39,689 nucleotides of DNA from Candidatus Woesearchaeota archaeon (GCA_964462045.1 CAYWWB010000004.1:1-39689); one strand, 5' to 3'. Shown: positions 18,963-39,689, numbered from the stretch's first letter. Numbers and translations: made by a program. The notes: generated from the letters alone by a model not told the origin.

Positions 18963-20411
18963 TTATCTGTTTAAATACCAATTTATTCCTAAACCATATT
19001 TAAAATCTCCAGATTTGCTTTTTTCTCCAAGCCCGGTTTCATATTTTACATTTCCTTCTACTGAAAAACTACTATTATCTTTTCCAGGAAAATACTCTAT
19101 TCCTGCAGAACCTGTAAAAGTAACTTCTTTTCCTAAATTTTTAATATAATTATCTCCTTCTCCATTACCTATCTCAAGTCTTGTTGAATCAACCACATTT
19201 CCATTTGCGTCTTCTGATATTATGTCTGTTGATATCTCCCCTTCATATTGTTGTTTAACATTTCTATAAGTCAATCCAACTTTTCCCTCCAATCCAAAAC
19301 TGTTTGAAATCATTCCGTTAAAACTAATTCCTGCTCCCCATTCATAATTTTGATACATAGGAGTTTTAGTAACATCTTTATTAGTTATAGCATATCTAGT
19401 TGTATCTCCTTCTTTATATAGAGGTTCTTTTTCTTGTTGAAGACTTTCATTTGTAGGTTTTCCTAAATTCCATGTATTATTTTGGTTCCCTATATTATAT
19501 GATATAAAAGGCCCTATTGAAAGATTTTCACTTCCAAATCCCAATGTAAAAGAAGCTTGTCCATAAAGATTGTCTCCAGCTACTACCCCATCAACATCTA
19601 ATTTTGGTTGGAACCAGCTTAAATCAAAATTCCTATTTCCACTTCTCTTCTTACTTTTATCATCATAAGGAGAATAAAAATTATCTTCTTCTACTTCAAC
19701 AATTCCTTGAACTTCACCAGTTGTAGGTTCTATTAAGTCATATTTTTTGGGATAATCTGAGTTTAAAATTCCTTCAAGATTTCCTCTTGATTTTTCTTTA
19801 TCAACTTTCCATCCCCAAATTTCATCAGTTTGAACATAATAGTTTTCTCTGTTGTCTGTTACACCAATTTCTTGAACATCATCTTTGTATGCCCAAACAA
19901 CATTTTGTTTTTCTCCATTTCCTGAAGGTTGGTGAAAATAATAAACTGTATCATTTATTCCGTCACTTCCTTTTATAACGAGTGTCTTAAATAAATTTGA
20001 GAAATCTTTTGTTTTAATTTCTAATTTATCTCCTTGAAAATCTAAGTTTTTTGTATCATATTGAGGAGTAGCATCTTCTGGTTTTTTTGCAAATTGACCA
20101 GAATTATTTAATATAATTCTATTTCCTTCAATTTCATAAGGAGAAAATACAACACTAGGTTTATTACCATTCATTTTACTAACAGGATATTTTTCAATTC
20201 CCAAAGGATTATCTCTTGATTCTTTAATTTCTTTAAAAGCGTAAACAGTTCCATGTTCCATGATAGCTTCTTGAGTTTCACTACTTCCCACAGAACCAGA
20301 TTGAGTAAAATCAACATCTTGAGCTTTAACATTAGGTGATAAAGCTGTAAGAGCTGCTAATCCTAAACCTCCTAAAAGGCTTTTGAATTTGTTTGTTTTT
20401 TTGTTTGTCAT
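18963..20411 (-). CDS. Secreted 482-aa protein whose C-terminal half looks like a transmembrane beta-barrel (OMP-like)
   Basis: Signal peptide FKSLLGGLGLAALTALSPNVKA/QD. C-terminal half has alternating Gly/aromatic-rich strands: YGQASFTLGFGSENLSIGPFISYNIG, YEWGAGISFNGMISNSFGLEGKVGLTYRN, VTFTGSAGIEYFPGKDNSSFSVEGNVKYETG, and terminal FKYGLGINWYLNR. Confidence 0.75.
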   Translation of the reverse strand: MTNKKTNKFKSLLGGLGLAALTALSPNVKAQDVDFTQSGSVGSSETQEAIMEHGTVYAFKEIKESRDNPLGIEKYPVSKMNGNKPSVVFSPYEIEGNRIILNNSGQFAKKPEDATPQYDTKNLDFQGDKLEIKTKDFSNLFKTLVIKGSDGINDTVYYFHQPSGNGEKQNVVWAYKDDVQEIGVTDNRENYYVQTDEIWGWKVDKEKSRGNLEGILNSDYPKKYDLIEPTTGEVQGIVEVEEDNFYSPYDDKSKKRSGNRNFDLSWFQPKLDVDGVVAGDNLYGQASFTLGFGSENLSIGPFISYNIGNQNNTWNLGKPTNESLQQEKEPLYKEGDTTRYAITNKDVTKTPMYQNYEWGAGISFNGMISNSFGLEGKVGLTYRNVKQQYEGEISTDIISEDANGNVVDSTRLEIGNGEGDNYIKNLGKEVTFTGSAGIEYFPGKDNSSFSVEGNVKYETGLGEKSKSGDFKYGLGINWYLNR

Positions 20412-32859: not shown

Positions 32860-33600
32860 TTATTTCCCTTTTCTAACTTTAAATATTATTGTGGGAGGCA
32901 CATGGTTCATTGCTTTTGGAAGAAATTCCCATACATTATACCAGGGATCCTTTTTATAGTGTTTCCTAGAATCTGGTTCAATAATTTTTTCTATTTTGAA
33001 ATTTGCTTCAACTAAAATGTTAACTATATCAGAAATTTTTCTATGATACATAACAAATTTTTCATTTCCATCTCTTTCTTCCCATTTCCCTGTTTTAAAA
33101 TAACTTTTTATTATCTTTAATGTTTTTGGATTTATGAGGCTATAAAAAGGATGAGGTATAGCTAAAACAAAATTTCCTCCTTTCTTTAATACACGATGCA
33201 CTTCTTTAAAACAACTTTCTAGATTATCTACGTAATGCAAAGCCCAGGCAGTAAAAACAATATCCTGGCTATTTGGTTTTATCTTATTTAGTTTTTTTAC
33301 ATCTCCTTGATATAGATCTATTTTTGCTTTGTTTTTTTCTGCTAATTTTTCTGCAAATTTCAATTGTTCTTTAGAAATATCTATTCCGGTAACTTTTGCA
33401 CCTTTTTTAGCCATAGCAATTCCGCATTGGGCTCCTCCGCAACTTATTTCAAGAATTTTCTTATTTTTTAAATCACCTAATAATTTTAACTTATCTTCAA
33501 AAGGGGCTCCCGGTCCATAATGTATTCCTATTGGAATTTTACATTTCTCTTGGTAGTTTTTAGAAGAATATTCCCACCACTCTTTTGTTTCTTTTGTCAT
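32860..33600 (-). CDS. Class I SAM-dependent methyltransferase
   Basis: Motif I ILEISCGGAQCGIAMAKKGAKVTGIDIS, then DIVFTAWALHYV and LKKGGNFVL. Confidence 0.85.
   Translation of the reverse strand: MTKETKEWWEYSSKNYQEKCKIPIGIHYGPGAPFEDKLKLLGDLKNKKILEISCGGAQCGIAMAKKGAKVTGIDISKEQLKFAEKLAEKNKAKIDLYQGDVKKLNKIKPNSQDIVFTAWALHYVDNLESCFKEVHRVLKKGGNFVLAIPHPFYSLINPKTLKIIKSYFKTGKWEERDGNEKFVMYHRKISDIVNILVEANFKIEKIIEPDSRKHYKKDPWYNVWEFLPKAMNHVPPTIIFKVRKGK
33346..33400. repeat. 55-nt exact direct repeat, copy 1 (inside the methyltransferase gene); copy 2 is at 39635..39689
   Basis: tttttctgcaaatttcaattgttctttagaaatatctattccggtaacttttgca is identical at both places. Copy 2 is cut by the window end. Confidence 0.95.
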
Positions 33601-33635
33601 TTCAACCTCTTCTCATAATTATATAAGGAATCTTT

Positions 33636-33869
33636 TTAAAACTTTTTCTTAGTTTCATAATAATTTTTTTCAAATTTTTTATAATCCAAATCTCTTAAAT
33701 TTGAACCAATCCTTTGAATTCCATCATATACAATAGCTCCAAAACCAATACCTAAAACAAAATAATCAGTAATGTTTCCATTTCCAAGAAAAAAAGTTGA
33801 AAGAGGAGATAAACTCTCTAAACTTCCCAAACCAATATTCAAATAATTCTCTAAATTTTGTCTTTTCAT
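33636..33869 (-). CDS. Hypothetical 77-aa membrane protein (last gene of the orphan operon)
   Basis: Hydrophobic GNITDYFVLGIGFGAIVY. Starts 1 nt after the upstream stop. Confidence 0.55.
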   Translation of the reverse strand: MKRQNLENYLNIGLGSLESLSPLSTFFLGNGNITDYFVLGIGFGAIVYDGIQRIGSNLRDLDYKKFEKNYYETKKKF

Positions 33870-33870
33870 T

Positions 33871-34380
33871 TTAATTTTTTGTTATATCAATAACTTTATT
33901 TCCTAAATGAATATCTTTCATCTCTCCTTTTGAAGAATTATAATGGCTTCTTTCTAAAGGGTAATTCCCTATTACTGGATTCTTATTTACAGGTAAAAAT
34001 AGATTGTCTCCTTGTTTTTTTATAAAGGCAAGATATAATCCACCTGAGTTATTAATTTGTTCATTGTTTCTTAAAATATTATAATTTTCATCACTGATAT
34101 GAACATTATCTACTTCAAAACCATGCCTATAAATTGCACTACTTAAGAAATTTAAAAATTCCTTTTCATTAGAACCCATGTTTTGATTCACATATCCAAT
34201 AACTTCAGGTCTTTGAGAATATTTTTCACATATTAAATTATAGTTAGGAATAAATACTATTGAATCAGAAGGTTCATCTACTTTTCCTTCAATTGTTTTA
34301 AACCTTTGAACTCTTCCATCGGGCAAGTGTGTGTATACAGATTCTCTTTCAGTCTTAAATCCTTTTATATTTTTATCCAT
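33871..34380 (-). CDS. Hypothetical 169-aa protein
   Basis: The ATG at 34380 (MDKNIKGF...) overlaps the upstream stop by 8 nt. The longer track ORF (to 34551) runs through a GC-rich Gly tract in another frame and is not preferred. Confidence 0.55.
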   Translation of the reverse strand: MDKNIKGFKTERESVYTHLPDGRVQRFKTIEGKVDEPSDSIVFIPNYNLICEKYSQRPEVIGYVNQNMGSNEKEFLNFLSSAIYRHGFEVDNVHISDENYNILRNNEQINNSGGLYLAFIKKQGDNLFLPVNKNPVIGNYPLERSHYNSSKGEMKDIHLGNKVIDITKN

Positions 34381-34870
34381 TGTAATTGCTTGATTTATTT
34401 TGTTTATTTTGTGGAACGTATGCAAGAATAATTCCGCATCCTGCTCCTGCTGCTCCACCACCCCCGCCTCCTGAAGATCCTCCAAATCCACCAAATCCAC
34501 TGCTTTTCTTACTCTCATCAATTTCCCATGACTTAATTGGTTTTTCCTCATTTAATTTTTCTACTAATTTTTCTATTGCTCCTTTTTCTGGTCCGTGTTT
34601 TCCTCTTCCAATTTTATACTTTAACTTTCCTATAATACTTGAATCAGGCAAGTAATCAACATTCTTTTTTGATGAATCTCTCTGAATTGCTTTTGAAACC
34701 AAGTATTTTTGTAATTCTTTGTTTGGAGTTACTTCGTAGTTTTTATTTGTTTCACTTCTAACTGGTTTGTATTTTCCTGCAAAATCTGGATTGGGCTGAT
34801 ATTTTGGTTCTGCCTTACTTGATACTAGAAGATTTCTTTCATACTTTGCTAGGTGTTTTTTGTTTGTCAT
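34373..34870 (-). CDS. Hypothetical 165-aa basic protein with a C-terminal poly-Gly tract and hydrophobic end
   Basis: MTNKKHLAKYE...; C-terminal SSGFGGFGGSSGGGGGGAAGAGCGIILAYV. Confidence 0.6.
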   Translation of the reverse strand: MTNKKHLAKYERNLLVSSKAEPKYQPNPDFAGKYKPVRSETNKNYEVTPNKELQKYLVSKAIQRDSSKKNVDYLPDSSIIGKLKYKIGRGKHGPEKGAIEKLVEKLNEEKPIKSWEIDESKKSSGFGGFGGSSGGGGGGAAGAGCGIILAYVPQNKQNKSSNYNG

Positions 34871-34883
34871 TTTATTCTGTTAT

Positions 34884-35330
34884 TTATTTAATTGAGTCTT
34901 GGATCTTTGATAATGCTTCAAATAGTTGCTTGTTTTTTTCATCCAGTTTTCTATTTGTTTCCTTTGTTTCTCTAATGTATTTCTGTAATGCTTCATCATT
35001 CTTGTATTTTTTATTTAACAAAGGACCAGAACTATATTCTCCAATTCCTACACCATATAAACTTCCGATGTCTCTTTCAAGATTACTTCCTGCTACTCTG
35101 TCAGCAAGAGTATTTCCTGAATTCTCTTCAACAGACTCTGGCTCTAATTCAATACCCGAAGGATTGTTTTTTTCTTTATAATTTTTTGGAGCGTCATCTT
35201 CTGAATTCATAGTAAGGCTCAAAATTTCTCTAACACTTAGATAGTCTTTTCTTTTCAATTCTTTCTCATGTTCAGGGCTGGGAATTTCATTATCTCTTAC
35301 TGCTTCCCAATCATACTTCATCTCTTTCAT
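34884..35330 (-). CDS. Hypothetical 148-aa acidic/helical protein
   Basis: ATGA overlap with the upstream gene. No motif recognised. Confidence 0.55.
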   Translation of the reverse strand: MKEMKYDWEAVRDNEIPSPEHEKELKRKDYLSVREILSLTMNSEDDAPKNYKEKNNPSGIELEPESVEENSGNTLADRVAGSNLERDIGSLYGVGIGEYSSGPLLNKKYKNDEALQKYIRETKETNRKLDEKNKQLFEALSKIQDSIK

Positions 35331-35836
35331 TTTGTCTTTTCCTCCTGTATTTTTTGTTCTAATGCTTTTCTGATTTTCTTTGAATGTTCCCCAGTTAAAT
35401 TGTCATATGCCTTGTTTATCCTTTCTCCAGTTATTCCCCTTACTTCACCAAATGCTTCAGTCTGTTTGGAATTCATATACTCTGTCAATCCAAGTTCATA
35501 CATATTATCTTCCATTGTTTTACATACTCCGCATTCCGGATTGTGAACTATATAACCCATTCCTCCTTCAAAACCATCTATTTGATGTAAAGGTAGTAAG
35601 TCTTCTTTCTTTAGATAATTGGACATAACAAGTCTTTCATCTCCATTTTCAGCTGAGCTTATTTCCTCAATTATGTCGTCAATGTCTAATTGCACATCTT
35701 TTCCGTAATTTATTTCCCATGCTTTATTAAATGCTTTACTTTCAACTCTACTTTCTATATTCTCTTTCAGCTTAGAGTATTTTTCCTTAAGTTCTTTAAG
35801 TCCTTCTTGTTTTTTTGTATATTTTTTGTTTGTCAT
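35327..35836 (-). CDS. Hypothetical 169-aa protein
   Basis: MTNKKYTKKQEG...; single CGVC pair. Starts 1 nt after the upstream stop. Confidence 0.55.
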   Translation of the reverse strand: MTNKKYTKKQEGLKELKEKYSKLKENIESRVESKAFNKAWEINYGKDVQLDIDDIIEEISSAENGDERLVMSNYLKKEDLLPLHQIDGFEGGMGYIVHNPECGVCKTMEDNMYELGLTEYMNSKQTEAFGEVRGITGERINKAYDNLTGEHSKKIRKALEQKIQEEKTK

Positions 35837-35837
35837 T

Positions 35838-36227
35838 TTATCTTCTCATTTGATAATTTACTTTAGATTCATAGTTATTTGTAGGGTTGTAACTAGCAGG
35901 GCCAATGTTTTCTACTTTAGCACTGTCATATTGTTTTTGAACTGGTTCAGGATTGTAATTATTTTGCCAAGTAGGAGAGATACAGTAAAAAGCAGCGGCA
36001 GTTCCAATAGTTGCAAAGCTCACAGCTATAGCTGTTTTTACTCTTTCTCCTAAATCTTTTTCAAACAAAGAGCTAGTTGGTTTTTTTGTGAAACCAGTAG
36101 GTCTCTTAGTGAAACCCTTAGTTTTCCTAAATCCTTTCTTTCTCTTGTTAAATCCTTTTGTGTTTGTTTTGTTTGTCATTTTATTTTTTGTTTTTTGTTT
36201 ATTTGGATGATATTTTGTTATCATCAT
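35838..36227 (-). CDS. Hypothetical membrane protein with a basic (T/K)KGF(N/R/T)K repeat N-terminus and one TM helix
   Basis: TKGFNKRKKGFRKTKGFTKRPTGFTKKPT, then TM AIAVSFATIGTAAAFYCI. The ATG at 36227 lies 23 nt from the TATA box at 36251..36258. An alternative internal start is at 36179 (MTNKTN...). Confidence 0.55.
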   Translation of the reverse strand: MMITKYHPNKQKTKNKMTNKTNTKGFNKRKKGFRKTKGFTKRPTGFTKKPTSSLFEKDLGERVKTAIAVSFATIGTAAAFYCISPTWQNNYNPEPVQKQYDSAKVENIGPASYNPTNNYESKVNYQMRR

Positions 36228-36250
36228 GTAATGAATACAATTACAAAGAT

Positions 36251-36258
36251 TATTTAAA
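36251..36258 (-). promoter_or_regulatory. TATA box (minus-strand TTTAAATA) 23 nt upstream of the ATG at 36227 of the orphan operon
   Basis: Lies in the 95-nt divergent intergenic region shared with the TrmB gene. Confidence 0.4.
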
Positions 36259-36285
36259 TGTTACCCTCCTACAAGTGTAGAGTAA

Positions 36286-36302
36286 TAGAAAGATTTATAT
36301 AT
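36286..36302 (+). promoter_or_regulatory. BRE/TATA (tagaaaga-TTTATATAT) 20 nt upstream of the TrmB-family gene ATG
   Basis: Sequence and spacing match the other promoters. Confidence 0.45.
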
Positions 36303-36322
36303 TCTCGGAATTATGGAGGATT

Positions 36323-37069
36323 ATGATTGAAAATGTATTGAGAGAAATAGGACTTACACAGAATGAGATTAAAGCATATCTTGCTTTATTAGATTTAGGA
36401 GAATCAAAAACCGGAGATATCTTGAAAGAGTCAGGACTTAATTCAGGTAAGATATATGAAATTCTGGATTCCCTCCATAAAAAAGGGCTAGTGTCCTATA
36501 TTACAAAATCAGGTGTGAAATATTTTAGTCCTGCAAACCCTAAAAGGCTTCTGGATTATCTGGAGGAGAAAAAAGAGAACATAAAAAAGCAGGAAGAGGA
36601 TTATAAAGATATTTTACCGCAGCTAATGAACAAGGTTTCTTCAACAAAATCAGAATCAAAAATAGAAGTTTTTACAGGATTAAAAGGGATGAAAAATGCT
36701 CATTTAAAAGAGCTTGAATTCCCTAAATCAGAGACTGTATATGTTTTAGGAGTAGGTCCTGCTGAAAAATACAAAAAAGAAATATGGGATTTCTTTGTAT
36801 ATAATCTTGAACCTAAAAGAGAAGAAAAAGGACATGAGGTAAGAAAATTACTAACAGAAGATGCAAGAGGAAGTGAAAAAGCTCATGGAAAACACGCTAA
36901 AATCAGATATTTGCCTTATGCTTCTTTAGTATCAATGAATATTGTGGGTAATCTAACAACAATAGGTTTATTTACAAAAGAACTTATTTTTATATCAATA
37001 GAAAGCCAGGAAATAGCAGACAGTTTCAAGGAACAGTTCAACAATCTCTGGAAGATTGCTAAGGATTAG
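36323..37069 (+). CDS. TrmB-family transcriptional regulator (N-terminal wHTH plus C-terminal domain)
   Basis: LREIGLTQNEIKAYLALLDLGESKTGDILKESGLNSGKIYEILDSLHKKGLVSYI is a typical TrmB HTH. Divergent from the orphan operon, with a 95-nt shared intergenic region. Confidence 0.85.
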   Translation: MIENVLREIGLTQNEIKAYLALLDLGESKTGDILKESGLNSGKIYEILDSLHKKGLVSYITKSGVKYFSPANPKRLLDYLEEKKENIKKQEEDYKDILPQLMNKVSSTKSESKIEVFTGLKGMKNAHLKELEFPKSETVYVLGVGPAEKYKKEIWDFFVYNLEPKREEKGHEVRKLLTEDARGSEKAHGKHAKIRYLPYASLVSMNIVGNLTTIGLFTKELIFISIESQEIADSFKEQFNNLWKIAKD

Positions 37070-37305
37070 GTTTTTTACCAATGCATCACATTAATATAAA
37101 CAGGAGATTTAGTTGAAAGAACTTTTTTTATGAAATTGTCTTTTTTCTTAGTTCAGGTGGGCTTTTATCCATCCCATAAAATTTGAGGTGCGCGCTCTTT
37201 TTTGCTTTTTTCTTTTTAAAGAAGAAGATGAAGGGTTCTTATTTTGCTTCTTTTTCTAAAAGAAGGTTCCGTTAAGTTTTAATATTAGAAAAACTAAGAA
37301 AGTTT

Positions 37306-37917
37306 ATGAAAGAATCACACCCTTGGGTAAAAGCTGAAAGAGAGTTTTATAAAAAGATGTATGGGGATTTAGTGAGAGACTTAGATTTATCAAAACCAAT
37401 CTCTGTTTTAGATTATGGTGCAGGAACTGGAGGATTTGCAGGTTTTTTAGCAGAATACAATCCACAAATAAAAGTTACTGCTGTTGATTCAAATCCTGAA
37501 GCAGTTAAATTGGGAAGAGAACACTACCAACATCTTCCTAATTTAGAATTTCTTGTCTCAGATGAAATTCCAAAAGGAAATTATGATTTAATTTTCAAAA
37601 ATTTAGTTTTGCATGAACTTAGTGGAAAAGGAGACAAGAAAACCATTACATCTTTTTTAAAAAAAGCCCATAAGTATTTGAAAGATGAAGGACTAGTTTC
37701 TGTTTTAGATAACAGAAAAATCCCCGAAGAAGACTTTAAACAAATCTATGAAAATAACCAAAGTAGAAGAAAGGGGACTTTTGAAGAAGAGTATCAGGAA
37801 CATAATAGATATACTATGAAAGATTGGCAAGAGATGTTAGAAAAATCTGGATTTTATACGGAAAAACATGCAGAACTTCCACCAAATCTGTTTCATTACA
37901 GAGGTCGGAAGAAATAA
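37306..37917 (+). CDS. Class I SAM-dependent methyltransferase
   Basis: Motif I VLDYGAGTGGFAGFLAE, then DLIFKNLVLHEL and LKDEGLVSV. Confidence 0.8.
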   Translation: MKESHPWVKAEREFYKKMYGDLVRDLDLSKPISVLDYGAGTGGFAGFLAEYNPQIKVTAVDSNPEAVKLGREHYQHLPNLEFLVSDEIPKGNYDLIFKNLVLHELSGKGDKKTITSFLKKAHKYLKDEGLVSVLDNRKIPEEDFKQIYENNQSRRKGTFEEEYQEHNRYTMKDWQEMLEKSGFYTEKHAELPPNLFHYRGRKK

Positions 37918-37919
37918 TT

Positions 37920-37933
37920 TCGGCGTAAGCCGA
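37920..37933 (+). terminator. Stem-loop with GNRA-type loop (tcggc-gtaa-gccga) directly after the methyltransferase stop
   Basis: A 5-bp GC-rich stem starts 3 nt after the TAA at 37915..37917. Function as a terminator or processing signal is inferred only. Confidence 0.3.
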
Positions 37934-38123
37934 CAAATTGTCCGAAGGACTAAGAACCCCTCAAAGTAAATGAAAAATTTGGGTGTAACGAAGTGAAACC
38001 TTTTATCGTTTGTTAAGCGAAATTTTCCCAAAATTTCGAGAGAGTTTTTTTGGTTCGATAAAAGAAGTTTTTCTATTTTTGTCGAAGACAAAAACTATCT
38101 GTGCGTAGCACTAGCGCGCTTCT

Positions 38124-38277: not shown

Positions 38278-39009
38278 ATGAATGTTCAAAAAGCAAAATC
38301 TCAAATAAAAAAATTAGCAGAAGAGTTTGATTTAAAATATAAGCCAAATTGGTTTAAACATTTATGGATTTCTGTGAGGCATGAAATTTTAACAGAATAT
38401 ATTGGAACTTGCCCAGATCCAATTTATCAAAAATACGGAAAAACCGCAGAACAAAGAATAAAAAATATTGATAAATTTGTAAATTCAAAAGATTTCAAGG
38501 ATTGTCTAAAAAGATATGGTGGGCAAGTTTCACAAAAAAGCAAGTTAAAGCAAGAAGAAAAATGGATTAAACAAATTAAGAATGAAGAATTGAAAAACGA
38601 GCTTTTAAAATTTCATGCTAAACTAAAAAACCAATTTGGAGAAAATGATTTTTTGGCTCTTCTGACAATACCAAGAAATAAAAAAGAAAAAGAATGGCAA
38701 ATGAGATTTTGCTTGAGGCACGAATGGATTCACATTTTATTGGACAAAAATAAAATTCAATTTCAGGAAATTGCTAAAAAATATTGGCCATATGACGAGG
38801 GAATAAATGAATACATGGGTGCCTATTTAGATGGCACATTGGATAAGTTAGAAAAATTTAGGGACAAAGAAAATTATCCAATGGAAAAGAAAAATTGGGT
38901 TTATGCTATAAAATTGAGAGAATTGTTTAAAAATAAAAAAACTCCAAAGGAAAGAAAAAAAGCACTTCTCGATTTGATTTCTAATTTAAAAAATCGAGCA
39001 CATGCCTAA
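38278..39009 (+). CDS. Hypothetical 243-aa protein with an HExxH motif (possible metallopeptidase-like)
   Basis: LRHEWIHILL contains HEWIH. Lys-rich helical protein. The stop codon abuts repeat copy 2. Confidence 0.55.
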   Translation: MNVQKAKSQIKKLAEEFDLKYKPNWFKHLWISVRHEILTEYIGTCPDPIYQKYGKTAEQRIKNIDKFVNSKDFKDCLKRYGGQVSQKSKLKQEEKWIKQIKNEELKNELLKFHAKLKNQFGENDFLALLTIPRNKKEKEWQMRFCLRHEWIHILLDKNKIQFQEIAKKYWPYDEGINEYMGAYLDGTLDKLEKFRDKENYPMEKKNWVYAIKLRELFKNKKTPKERKKALLDLISNLKNRAHA

Positions 39010-39060
39010 TTGGGTGGGACTTATCAATTAGAGATTTAAATTTTTAGCAGAAGAAAAAAT
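39010..39060. repeat. 51-nt exact direct repeat, copy 2
   Basis: See copy 1 at 38124..38174. Confidence 0.95.
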
Positions 39061-39144: not shown

Positions 39145-39609
39145 ATGGTAGAAATTAGAAAAGCAAATCTTCAAGATGCAAATTCAATCAGTCAAATGAT
39201 GACTGAAAATATTAATTTACTTTCTTCAAAAAGTTATTCAAAAGAACAAATTTCGGCAATGAAAAAATATGTTTCTGAAGAAAATATAAAAAAATACATC
39301 AAAGATTTTGAAGTTTTCATTGCCTTAGATAATAATGAAGTTGTTGGCACGATTTCTTTTGATAAAGATTTAATTTTCTCTGTTTATGTTAAAGGTTCAA
39401 CAAATTTTATTGATAAAGGAATCGGAGATGAAATGTTAAAATTTGTAGAAAGCTATGCAAAGAAATTAGGAGAAAATAAAATCTCTGTTATTTCAATGCC
39501 AACAACAAAAACTTTTTTTGAAGAAAGAGGATACAAAGTTGTGGAAGATTTGCTATTAGATTTTGATGGCGTGGATTTTCCAGAATTTAAATTAAGTAAG
39601 AATATTTAA
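39145..39609 (+). CDS. GNAT-family N-acetyltransferase
   Basis: Size and pattern (IRKANLQDANSI..., VVGTISF..., GIGDEMLKFVESYAKKLG, ...FFEERGYK) fit GNAT motifs A and B. Confidence 0.75.
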   Translation: MVEIRKANLQDANSISQMMTENINLLSSKSYSKEQISAMKKYVSEENIKKYIKDFEVFIALDNNEVVGTISFDKDLIFSVYVKGSTNFIDKGIGDEMLKFVESYAKKLGENKISVISMPTTKTFFEERGYKVVEDLLLDFDGVDFPEFKLSKNI

Positions 39610-39689
39610 CGGAAATTATTTGAAACTCTGCGGTTTTTTCTGCAAATTTCAATTGTTCTTTAGAAATATCTATTCCGGTAACTTTTGCA
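39587..39689 (-). pseudogene. Truncated or divergent copy of the 32860..33600 methyltransferase (N-terminal part; continues beyond the window)
   Basis: The minus-strand frame reads ...AKVTGIDISKEQLKFAEKTAEFQIISVKYSYLI*. The first 18 residues are identical to the full-length gene, followed by divergence and an early stop that overlaps the GNAT 3' end. Confidence 0.45.

Follow-up and report, generated by a model that had tools for sequence, protein, structure and literature searches.

Genes and control region of the locus

The 39,689-nt window analysed here, to which all coordinates refer, is the whole of contig C4 from a genome of 0.72 Mb (721 kb in 49 contigs, with a GC content of about 28-29%). 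Between positions 33636 and 37069 it carries six tightly packed minus-strand genes, g1 to g6 in the order in which they are read, and a divergently oriented gene for a TrmB-like regulator. The only match to g5 in a scan of GTDB genomes lay in a Candidatus Pacearchaeota metagenome-assembled genome (MAG), hence the source is taken to be an archaeon of the DPANN group (Diapherotrites, Parvarchaeota, Aenigmarchaeota, Nanoarchaeota and Nanohaloarchaea); the genomes of its relatives span 0.4-1.4 Mb. The interpretation developed below, which we favour with slightly better than even confidence, is that these genes are strain-variable accessory cargo, built by recombination and placed under a local TrmB-like regulator, rather than the parts of a conserved machine. 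The features of the locus are as follows.

36323..37069, plus strand: TrmB-like regulator, 248 aa, with the Pfam TrmB winged helix-turn-helix (wHTH) at residues 6-73
36228..36322, no strand assigned: divergent control region, 95 nt, homologous to an intergenic region of genome G036
36227..35838, minus strand: g1, 129 aa, basic, pI 10.2
35836..35327, minus strand: g2, 169 aa, acidic, soluble, an apparent ORFan starting MTNKK
35330..34884, minus strand: g3, 148 aa, an apparent acidic ORFan with a 4-nt overlap with the g2 stop
34870..34373, minus strand: g4, 165 aa, an apparent basic ORFan starting MTNKK
34380..33871, minus strand: g5, 169 aa, starting at M58 of a longer open reading frame (ORF) of 226 aa
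33869..33636, minus strand: g6, an apparent ORFan of 77 aa

The initial annotation had described six minus-strand genes packed in this way, and ORF listing reproduced them from 36227 down to 33636, with spacers of 1, -4, 13, -8 and 1 nt. The six genes are real. A codon model trained on 375 of the genome's long ORFs scored g1 to g6 all positively in frame 0 (0.24-0.32) and the other two frames strongly negatively, and by our own calculation the chance of an open run of 129-169 codons is about 1e-5 (at about 29% GC, with a stop at about 8% of codons). Independent gene calls on Logan contigs gave the same six products, including the choice of M58 as the start of g5. A seventh co-oriented gene, encoding the methyltransferase MT1 (33600..32860), begins 35 nt past g6. 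The six genes form a co-oriented string that, as part of the favoured interpretation and with the same modest preference, is predicted to be driven from a bidirectional archaeal promoter shared with the regulator.

The presence of a TrmB-type regulator across a 95-nt divergent region, also proposed at the outset, was confirmed by a match to the Pfam wHTH family PF01978 (E 1.4e-16, 60.5 bits against a cutoff of 25.6). The TrmB_C sugar-binding domain was not detected, and there was no Pfam match in residues 120-248. The NCBIfam equivalogs for TrmBL1, TrmB and TrmBL2 aligned with only the N-terminal 120-130 or so residues (62 bits against a cutoff of 650), and PADLOC returned only weak matches to Csa3-like HTH proteins. 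The protein therefore resembles TrmB, TrmBL1 and TrmBL2 in its N-terminal wHTH, in a length of about 250 aa (as in TrmBL2), in its divergence from its presumed targets and in its palindromic candidate operator, but differs from TrmB and TrmBL1 in lacking a detectable TrmB_C and in equivalog scores far below the cutoff. It also differs from the wider family in belonging to a lineage-specific expansion: the family of about 250 aa was present in 39 of 61 genomes, in up to 10 copies per genome. In three genomes of 1.0-1.4 Mb (G019, G036 and G033) there were 6-10 such paralogues each, a striking number for that size. A general pairing of the paralogues with genes of the kind found here was checked, and did not hold.

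Within the control region, two TATA-like boxes were recognised by eye in a back-to-back arrangement, one at about 36254-36261, assigned to the minus-strand operon, and the other at about 36295-36302, assigned to the regulator. Between them, at 36269-36280, lies the perfect palindrome CTACAAGTGTAG, which is unique in the window (0.02 expected). A dimer of the TrmB-like protein would bind this candidate operator and control both transcription units.

The sole close orthologue of the regulator (63%) was found in G036, of genus g35, beside PCNA and primase genes, where it is divergent from an unrelated two-gene cargo. The intergenic region there aligns with 36150-36335, taking in both TATA boxes, a palindrome in the same place and the start aaaATGACAAACAAAA, which corresponds to M17 of g1 (MTNK). 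Hence the alignment indicates that a unit of regulator, promoter and start codon is conserved in another genus while its cargo has been swapped. The same correspondence suggests that g1 itself may start at this M17 (36179, MTNK...), rather than at the upstream start listed above.

The sequence ATGACAAACAAA occurs five times in the 721-kb genome, against about 0.4 expected by our own estimate, and three of these occurrences are the starts of g1 (at M17), g2 and g4; in about 200 kb of loci from other genomes it was found only at the orthologous start in G036. This shared start motif therefore suggests three sub-cassettes, g1, g2-g3 and g4-g5-g6. The sub-cassettes would have been stacked behind the promoter by the displacement of successive 5' ends. 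Elsewhere in the window, a fourth occurrence of the start motif (AAAATGACAAACAAAA), at 20411 (minus strand), heads the gene for a 482-aa exported protein (MTNKKTNKF...), and this rare motif may mark swap boundaries. An apparent joint, 33382->36181, was rejected as an effect of the repeated MTNK start motif, having no more than 21 nt on one side.

The 6,289-bp block and its variability in the population

The operon occupies the left half of a mosaic block of 6,289 bp, the remaining features of which, together with the adjoining methyltransferase gene, are these.

32860..33600, minus strand: MT1, an intact class I S-adenosylmethionine (SAM) methyltransferase, the 5' part of which is R1
33346..33611, minus strand: R1 copy A, about 266 nt, comprising the MT1 5' end (codons 1-85) and 11 nt upstream
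37076..37144, minus strand: R2, a 69-nt relic directly after the TrmB stop
37306..37917, plus strand: MT2, a second SAM methyltransferase cassette
37908..38121, plus strand: structured 3'-flank element, comparatively GC-rich, with paralogous copies on contigs C14 and C43
38124..38174, plus strand: 51-nt direct repeat, copy 1, promoter-like (TTTAAAT)
38278..39009, plus strand: HExxH-motif protein, 243 aa, no family match
39010..39060, plus strand: 51-nt direct repeat, copy 2, a perfect repeat; the pair brackets the HExxH gene
39145..39609, plus strand: GNAT acetyltransferase, 154 aa
39627..39689, minus strand: second copy of R1, an MT1 5' fragment truncated at about codon 87 and running off the contig end

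The seams of this block are duplicated gene ends, and direct repeats (R1) stand at both of its ends, 6,289 bp apart. At the end of C4, the final 55 nt (39635-39689) repeat 33346-33400, within MT1, exactly. The end of contig C29, when reverse-complemented, equals 33457-33611 with 3 mismatches, taking in the MT1 start codon and the 11 nt upstream, and this overlap with R1 therefore makes the reverse complement of C29 the probable continuation of C4. R2 is 98.6% identical to C29 4729-4797, which consists of the last 67 nt of a 354-aa ORF and part of its stop codon.

Contig depths in Logan assemblies of three metagenomes from one study (X1, X2 and X3) were as follows.

Left flank: X1 19.2, X2 12.7, X3 41
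C29: X1 20.4, X2 12.9, X3 39.4
Operon and TrmB-like gene, in one perfect contig of 3,540 nt: X1 13, X2 7.5, X3 33.6
MT2, HExxH and GNAT part: X1 about 10-11, X2 6-8, X3 23-30
R1 unitig: X1 31, X2 23, X3 58.5

In the three runs the depth of the block was 0.59-0.85 of that of both chromosomal flanks. Hence the block is population-variable, being carried by about 60-85% of the population. In X1 and X2, R1 has roughly the depth obtained by adding block to chromosome. The depths are consistent with an integrated arrangement, Cleft-R1-[operon+TrmB]-R2-[MT2-HExxH-GNAT]-R1-S-R2-C29, in part of the cells. In the assembly graph, which was examined as contigs, block-left, R2, block-right and R1 close into a circle of 6,289 bp. 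A SPAdes-type MAG contig crosses from the chromosome through R1 into the block, and integration is therefore favoured. The block is absent from both same-genus genomes. An empty site was not recovered from the same-genus genome G002, where synteny breaks at a contig end, and a look-up for a second contig with the GNAT or g6 gene gave only the same Logan contigs.

The composition of the block is native to its host, with a tetranucleotide distance that ranks at the 52nd percentile among 6-kb chunks and with codon scores no more than about 1-2 standard deviations from the genome mean. Its ten genes gave no integrase, recombinase, replication initiator, packaging ATPase or capsid match in Pfam, PHROGs or NCBIfam, and no tRNA or Rfam RNA was found in the block or at its seams. 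To the right, C29 184-8177 holds twelve co-oriented, tightly packed genes for small enzymes, including four SAM methyltransferases, two GNATs, a cytidine-deaminase-like protein, a polysaccharide deacetylase, a DUF952 protein and a bacterial-type RsmH/MraW (Pfam 1.7e-87), gene kinds like those of the right half of the block.

That right half is itself a patchwork. The flanks of MT2 match C14 at 76-77%, and the 51-nt repeat is 97-98% identical to a promoter-like segment of C43 (1528-1599), copy 1 matching C43:1528-1588 at 98%. In run X3 a contig of depth 16.6 joins 37275 to 37912, representing a variant without 37276-37911 (MT2); the right half therefore appears to consist of independently variable cassettes. 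The three copies of the structured element (37908-38121; C14:3682-3890; C43:1386-1477) stand right after the stops of three unrelated genes. They contain nested hairpins, two stems of which show compensatory changes between copies by eye (ATCG..CGAT against ATCC..GGAT, and TTTGTC..GACAAA against TTTGCC..GGCAAA), and had no Rfam match. The copies may represent a family of 3' elements or terminators, or alternatively a recombination seam. On C43, the repeat-like segment is followed by a GC-rich, ORF-poor stretch of about 170 nt (1600-1770), adjoining a seryl-tRNA synthetase gene, which may be an unannotated non-coding RNA; it had no Rfam match at the gathering threshold.

Products of the six genes

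None of the six products had a usable match in Pfam, PHROGs, NCBIfam or PADLOC, which agrees with the initial annotation in that no family could be named. Five of the genes (g1-g4 and g6) appear, from these searches, to be ORFans. A concatenated query of their products found no homologue in 60 relatives and 400 genomes of the order (about 460 in all), a marginal match in G154 (E 1e-3) being spurious and due to the poly-Gly tract; a word-limited search of 5.8 billion proteins with g2 returned g2 and nothing else, word-based searches being too insensitive for homologues; and none of the six has a paralogue within its own genome. The features originally reported for g1 and g4 are present. The g1 N-terminus has a fourfold basic [KT]GFxK (KGF/TGF) repeat, followed by a transmembrane helix at residues 65-83 (Kyte-Doolittle hydropathy, KD, 1.68) and a C-terminal tail rich in N, Y and P, while g4 has a Gly-rich tract, then a short hydrophobic CGIILAYV and a polar tail. 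The small g6, which had been called a transmembrane protein, does contain a hydrophobic central stretch, but this is only moderate (KD 1.35). The product of g2 has a single CGVC motif, with a local Thioredoxin_2 match below threshold (E 0.008, 17 bits against a cutoff of 27). On these features g1 would be a single-pass membrane protein with a polybasic cytoplasmic head, g4 and g6 would be proteins with weak hydrophobic segments, and g2 and g3 would be acidic and soluble. Most likely the products would have an accessory role close to the membrane, originating in mobile DNA or conflict rather than in housekeeping.

The exception to this isolation is g5, a solo copy of an unnamed domain of about 165 aa that, judged by profile searches, belongs to a new domain family. 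An exhaustive HMMER search of 1.84 billion representatives gave 257 matches, 166 of them below 1e-10, these counts being of representative clusters at 50% identity. Among 182 sampled members the domain stood alone in 89, was C-terminal in 59, internal in 22 and tandem in 3, within proteins of up to 4,240 aa, most of which had no Pfam domain. The family is found mostly in cellular genomes of the Candidate Phyla Radiation (CPR) and DPANN, often as the C-terminal part of a protein without any other recognisable domain, with named sources in Ca. Paceibacterota and one Nanobdellota archaeon. Four of the giants carry one domain each: P0104 (4240 aa), P0118 (3125), P0116 (2555) and P0141 (3280); the first three lack any Pfam domain, and P0104 also lacks a PHROG match. 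Scans of IMG/VR with g5, g2 and the g5 profile, and of JGI metagenomes with the g5 profile, gave no match.

In an alignment of 49 sequences, residues T10, Y16, R26 and H158 are invariant. The AlphaFold2 model of g5 from this alignment, with a mean predicted local distance difference test (pLDDT) of 95.9 and a predicted template modelling score (pTM) of 0.89, is an alpha/beta structure with a beta-rich core and a three-helix insert; from only 3 sequences the pLDDT was 41. Foldseek searches, which the initial annotation had proposed for the predicted structures, gave a divided result for g5. There was no match in the PDB (best E 0.69, template modelling (TM) score below 0.25), and a sequence-profile search of the PDB with the family likewise gave nothing meaningful. 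Five matches with a probability of 1.0, E of 2e-5 to 1e-4 and TM of about 0.48 were obtained, all to proteins of uncultured Caudovirales of 278 to 1,395 aa. Hence the model predicts, with high confidence, a new alpha/beta fold without a PDB match.

A connection with phages is also suggested by P0117, a protein of 3,491 aa in which residues 716-859 match positions 12-170 of the g5 hidden Markov model (HMM). It also carries LPD38 (8e-31) and ART-PolyVal (6e-13) domains and a match to phrog_14770 (1.6e-78), and LPD38 is confined to phage-type polyvalent proteins (Iyer et al. 2017, PMC5512222). These three matches together therefore identify P0117 as a phage-type polyvalent protein, and the g5 domain appears, by profile alignment, to be embedded in a bona fide member of that class. 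The g5 domain resembles the large-polyvalent-protein-associated domains (LPDs) known from polyvalent proteins of phages and conjugative elements (PMC5512222) in occurring both alone and inside P0117, and its model resembles domains in Caudovirales proteins of 1.1-1.4 thousand aa. However, scanning 49 members gave no consistent Pfam or PHROG family and no Pfam LPD model, most members are in CPR or DPANN cellular genomes, and the solo form has a three-helix insert that is missing from the polyvalent versions.

The genomic surroundings of g5 relatives vary. Solo relatives in four long CPR contigs stand in ordinary bacterial, housekeeping neighbourhoods. The relative at 37-39%, in the Pacearchaeota MAG, adjoins a gene for a predicted Zn protease of the DUF2268 family, and the relative at 68%, the only one that a word-based search with g5 gave, lies on a 1.7-kb Logan contig between an unrelated 166-aa gene and a JAB-like gene. 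On the latter contig (L004, 1095-1697), 1 nt separates the homologue from the next gene, the product of which has the JAMM-like motif HTHPNSESVVPSSNDL and a weak Prok-JAB match (E 0.03). A link between g5 and metalloproteases (DUF2268 in G034, JAB-like in L004) was considered and rejected, as the HExxH protein of the window is unrelated to DUF2268 and four other family contexts are all unrelated; the two protease neighbours may be coincidence.

Origin and significance of the block

In the interpretation we favour, the block would sit in a flexible region of a Pacearchaeota chromosome occupied by small modification enzymes, such as methyltransferases and GNATs. Recombination at short stretches of homology to resident genes, Campbell-like or by double crossover, would have assembled and inserted it, leaving displaced gene ends at its seams in the form of R1, R2 and the promoter-bearing 51-nt repeat. 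This would make it similar to flexible genomic islands (additive or replacement) that are exchanged by homologous recombination, which are likewise strain-variable, native in composition and without an encoded recombinase, with seams formed by truncated copies of flanking genes (here R1 and R2) and small accessory enzymes around them. The relics in such islands are more usually the 3' end of a gene, whereas R1 is a 5' end with its start codon and 11 nt upstream; the block also differs in closing on itself in the assembly graph, and in a cargo consisting almost entirely of apparent ORFans. There is a further likeness, in layout alone, to integrons, the platform of which comprises a divergent intI, a Pc promoter, attI and an array of promoterless cassettes. 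In both, a string of unrelated genes lying close together follows a divergent gene and promoter, one unit after another begins with a short recurring sequence, and the cargo differs between relatives sharing the platform. However, the divergent gene here encodes a wHTH regulator rather than a tyrosine recombinase, no attC-like hairpins are reported between the cassettes, and the recurrent motif overlaps the start codon.

Several points weigh against this interpretation. The R1 depth in X3 (58.5) is below the expected sum of about 75, and the contig depths are matched just as well by a separate circle of 6,289 bp that has R1 and R2 in common with the chromosome. The stacking of sub-cassettes rests on an 18-nt motif and one orthologous locus, and a simple internal duplication of the start region would look alike; the operator, too, was assigned by eye. 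The predicted structure covers one of the six products, g5, and solo g5 relatives in CPR genomes occur among housekeeping genes, so that for the solo form a part in conflict or mobility is at most a possibility.

The closure into a circle raises the possibility, which we regard as real albeit unlikely, that the unit is a plasmid or virus of a Pacearchaeota host, a small mobile element, autonomous or integrative, existing as a circle, integrated Campbell-style via R1 and R2, or both. The six apparent ORFans would then be replication or virion proteins, with basic g1 and g4 and hydrophobic g6 as structural components, and the TrmB-like protein would regulate lysogeny or copy number. Archaeal viruses and plasmids typically have many ORFans, small basic and membrane proteins and a wHTH regulator, and the locus shares this combination; its depth is unlike that of the chromosome and varies between samples, it is missing from same-genus genomes, and the g5 domain recurs in phage polyvalent proteins. 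Yet no Rep, integrase, packaging ATPase or capsid was matched in Pfam, PHROG or NCBIfam, and the three IMG/VR scans (g5, g2 and the g5 profile) were empty. Furthermore, a replicating episome would not usually be present at less than one copy per chromosome, the right half is made up of ordinary cassettes of cellular type like those of the adjoining chromosome, the composition is indistinguishable from that of the host, and the assembler joined chromosome to block. A more particular proposal, which we hold to be distinctly unlikely, is of an episome of wholly unrecognised genes entering the chromosome by homologous recombination via R1 and R2, with the TrmB-like protein as its switch and g5 as an establishment or anti-host factor.

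The suggestion of the initial annotation, that the genes and their regulator constitute a regulated accessory system, survives in part: the DNA is accessory, orphan-like, mobile-looking and strain-variable, but no coherent six-gene system was recovered. It is improbable that the six genes and regulator work together as a multi-protein system of their own, serving defence, the envelope or host interaction, and are inherited together. Their tight packing and overlapping stops and starts do suggest co-translation, membrane and soluble products are mixed, and the regulator is their own; however, the same gene order was found beside no other TrmB gene, searches of g5-relative loci with the block proteins by tblastn found g5 only, and no co-occurrence of the genes was seen in any other genome, five of them having no homologue in the roughly 460 genomes of the order; lack of co-occurrence was the result that the initial annotation itself had named as refuting its reading. 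The neighbours of the g5 homologues are unrelated, the orthologous regulator has other cargo, and PADLOC found no defence family for any of the six genes. An artefact of assembly or binning is similarly doubtful. On this account the block would come from another co-occurring strain or organism and be joined through shared R1 k-mers only, as might be suspected from its depth being unlike that of the flanks in all three runs, and from the contig ending exactly in a 55-mer repeat. Instead, codon and tetranucleotide usage are typical of the genome, R1 and R2 match the chromosome at 98-100% identity, no other flanks were seen at block depth, and the ratio of block to chromosome stays within 0.59-0.85, as a sub-population within one species would give.

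The ways in which DPANN archaea, with their tiny genomes, acquire genes are poorly understood. In the favoured interpretation, that of recombination-built cargo under a local regulator, this locus shows at base resolution a population-variable patchwork without a local recombinase, with seams formed of displaced gene starts and ends. Within it, the unit of regulator, promoter and start codon would stay where it is as one cargo behind it is exchanged for another. The distribution of the g5 family ties together CPR bacteria, DPANN archaea and phage polyvalent proteins, making it a concrete target for structural and biochemical work, and a possible marker of gene flow, or of shared parasites, between the two groups of ultra-small cells.

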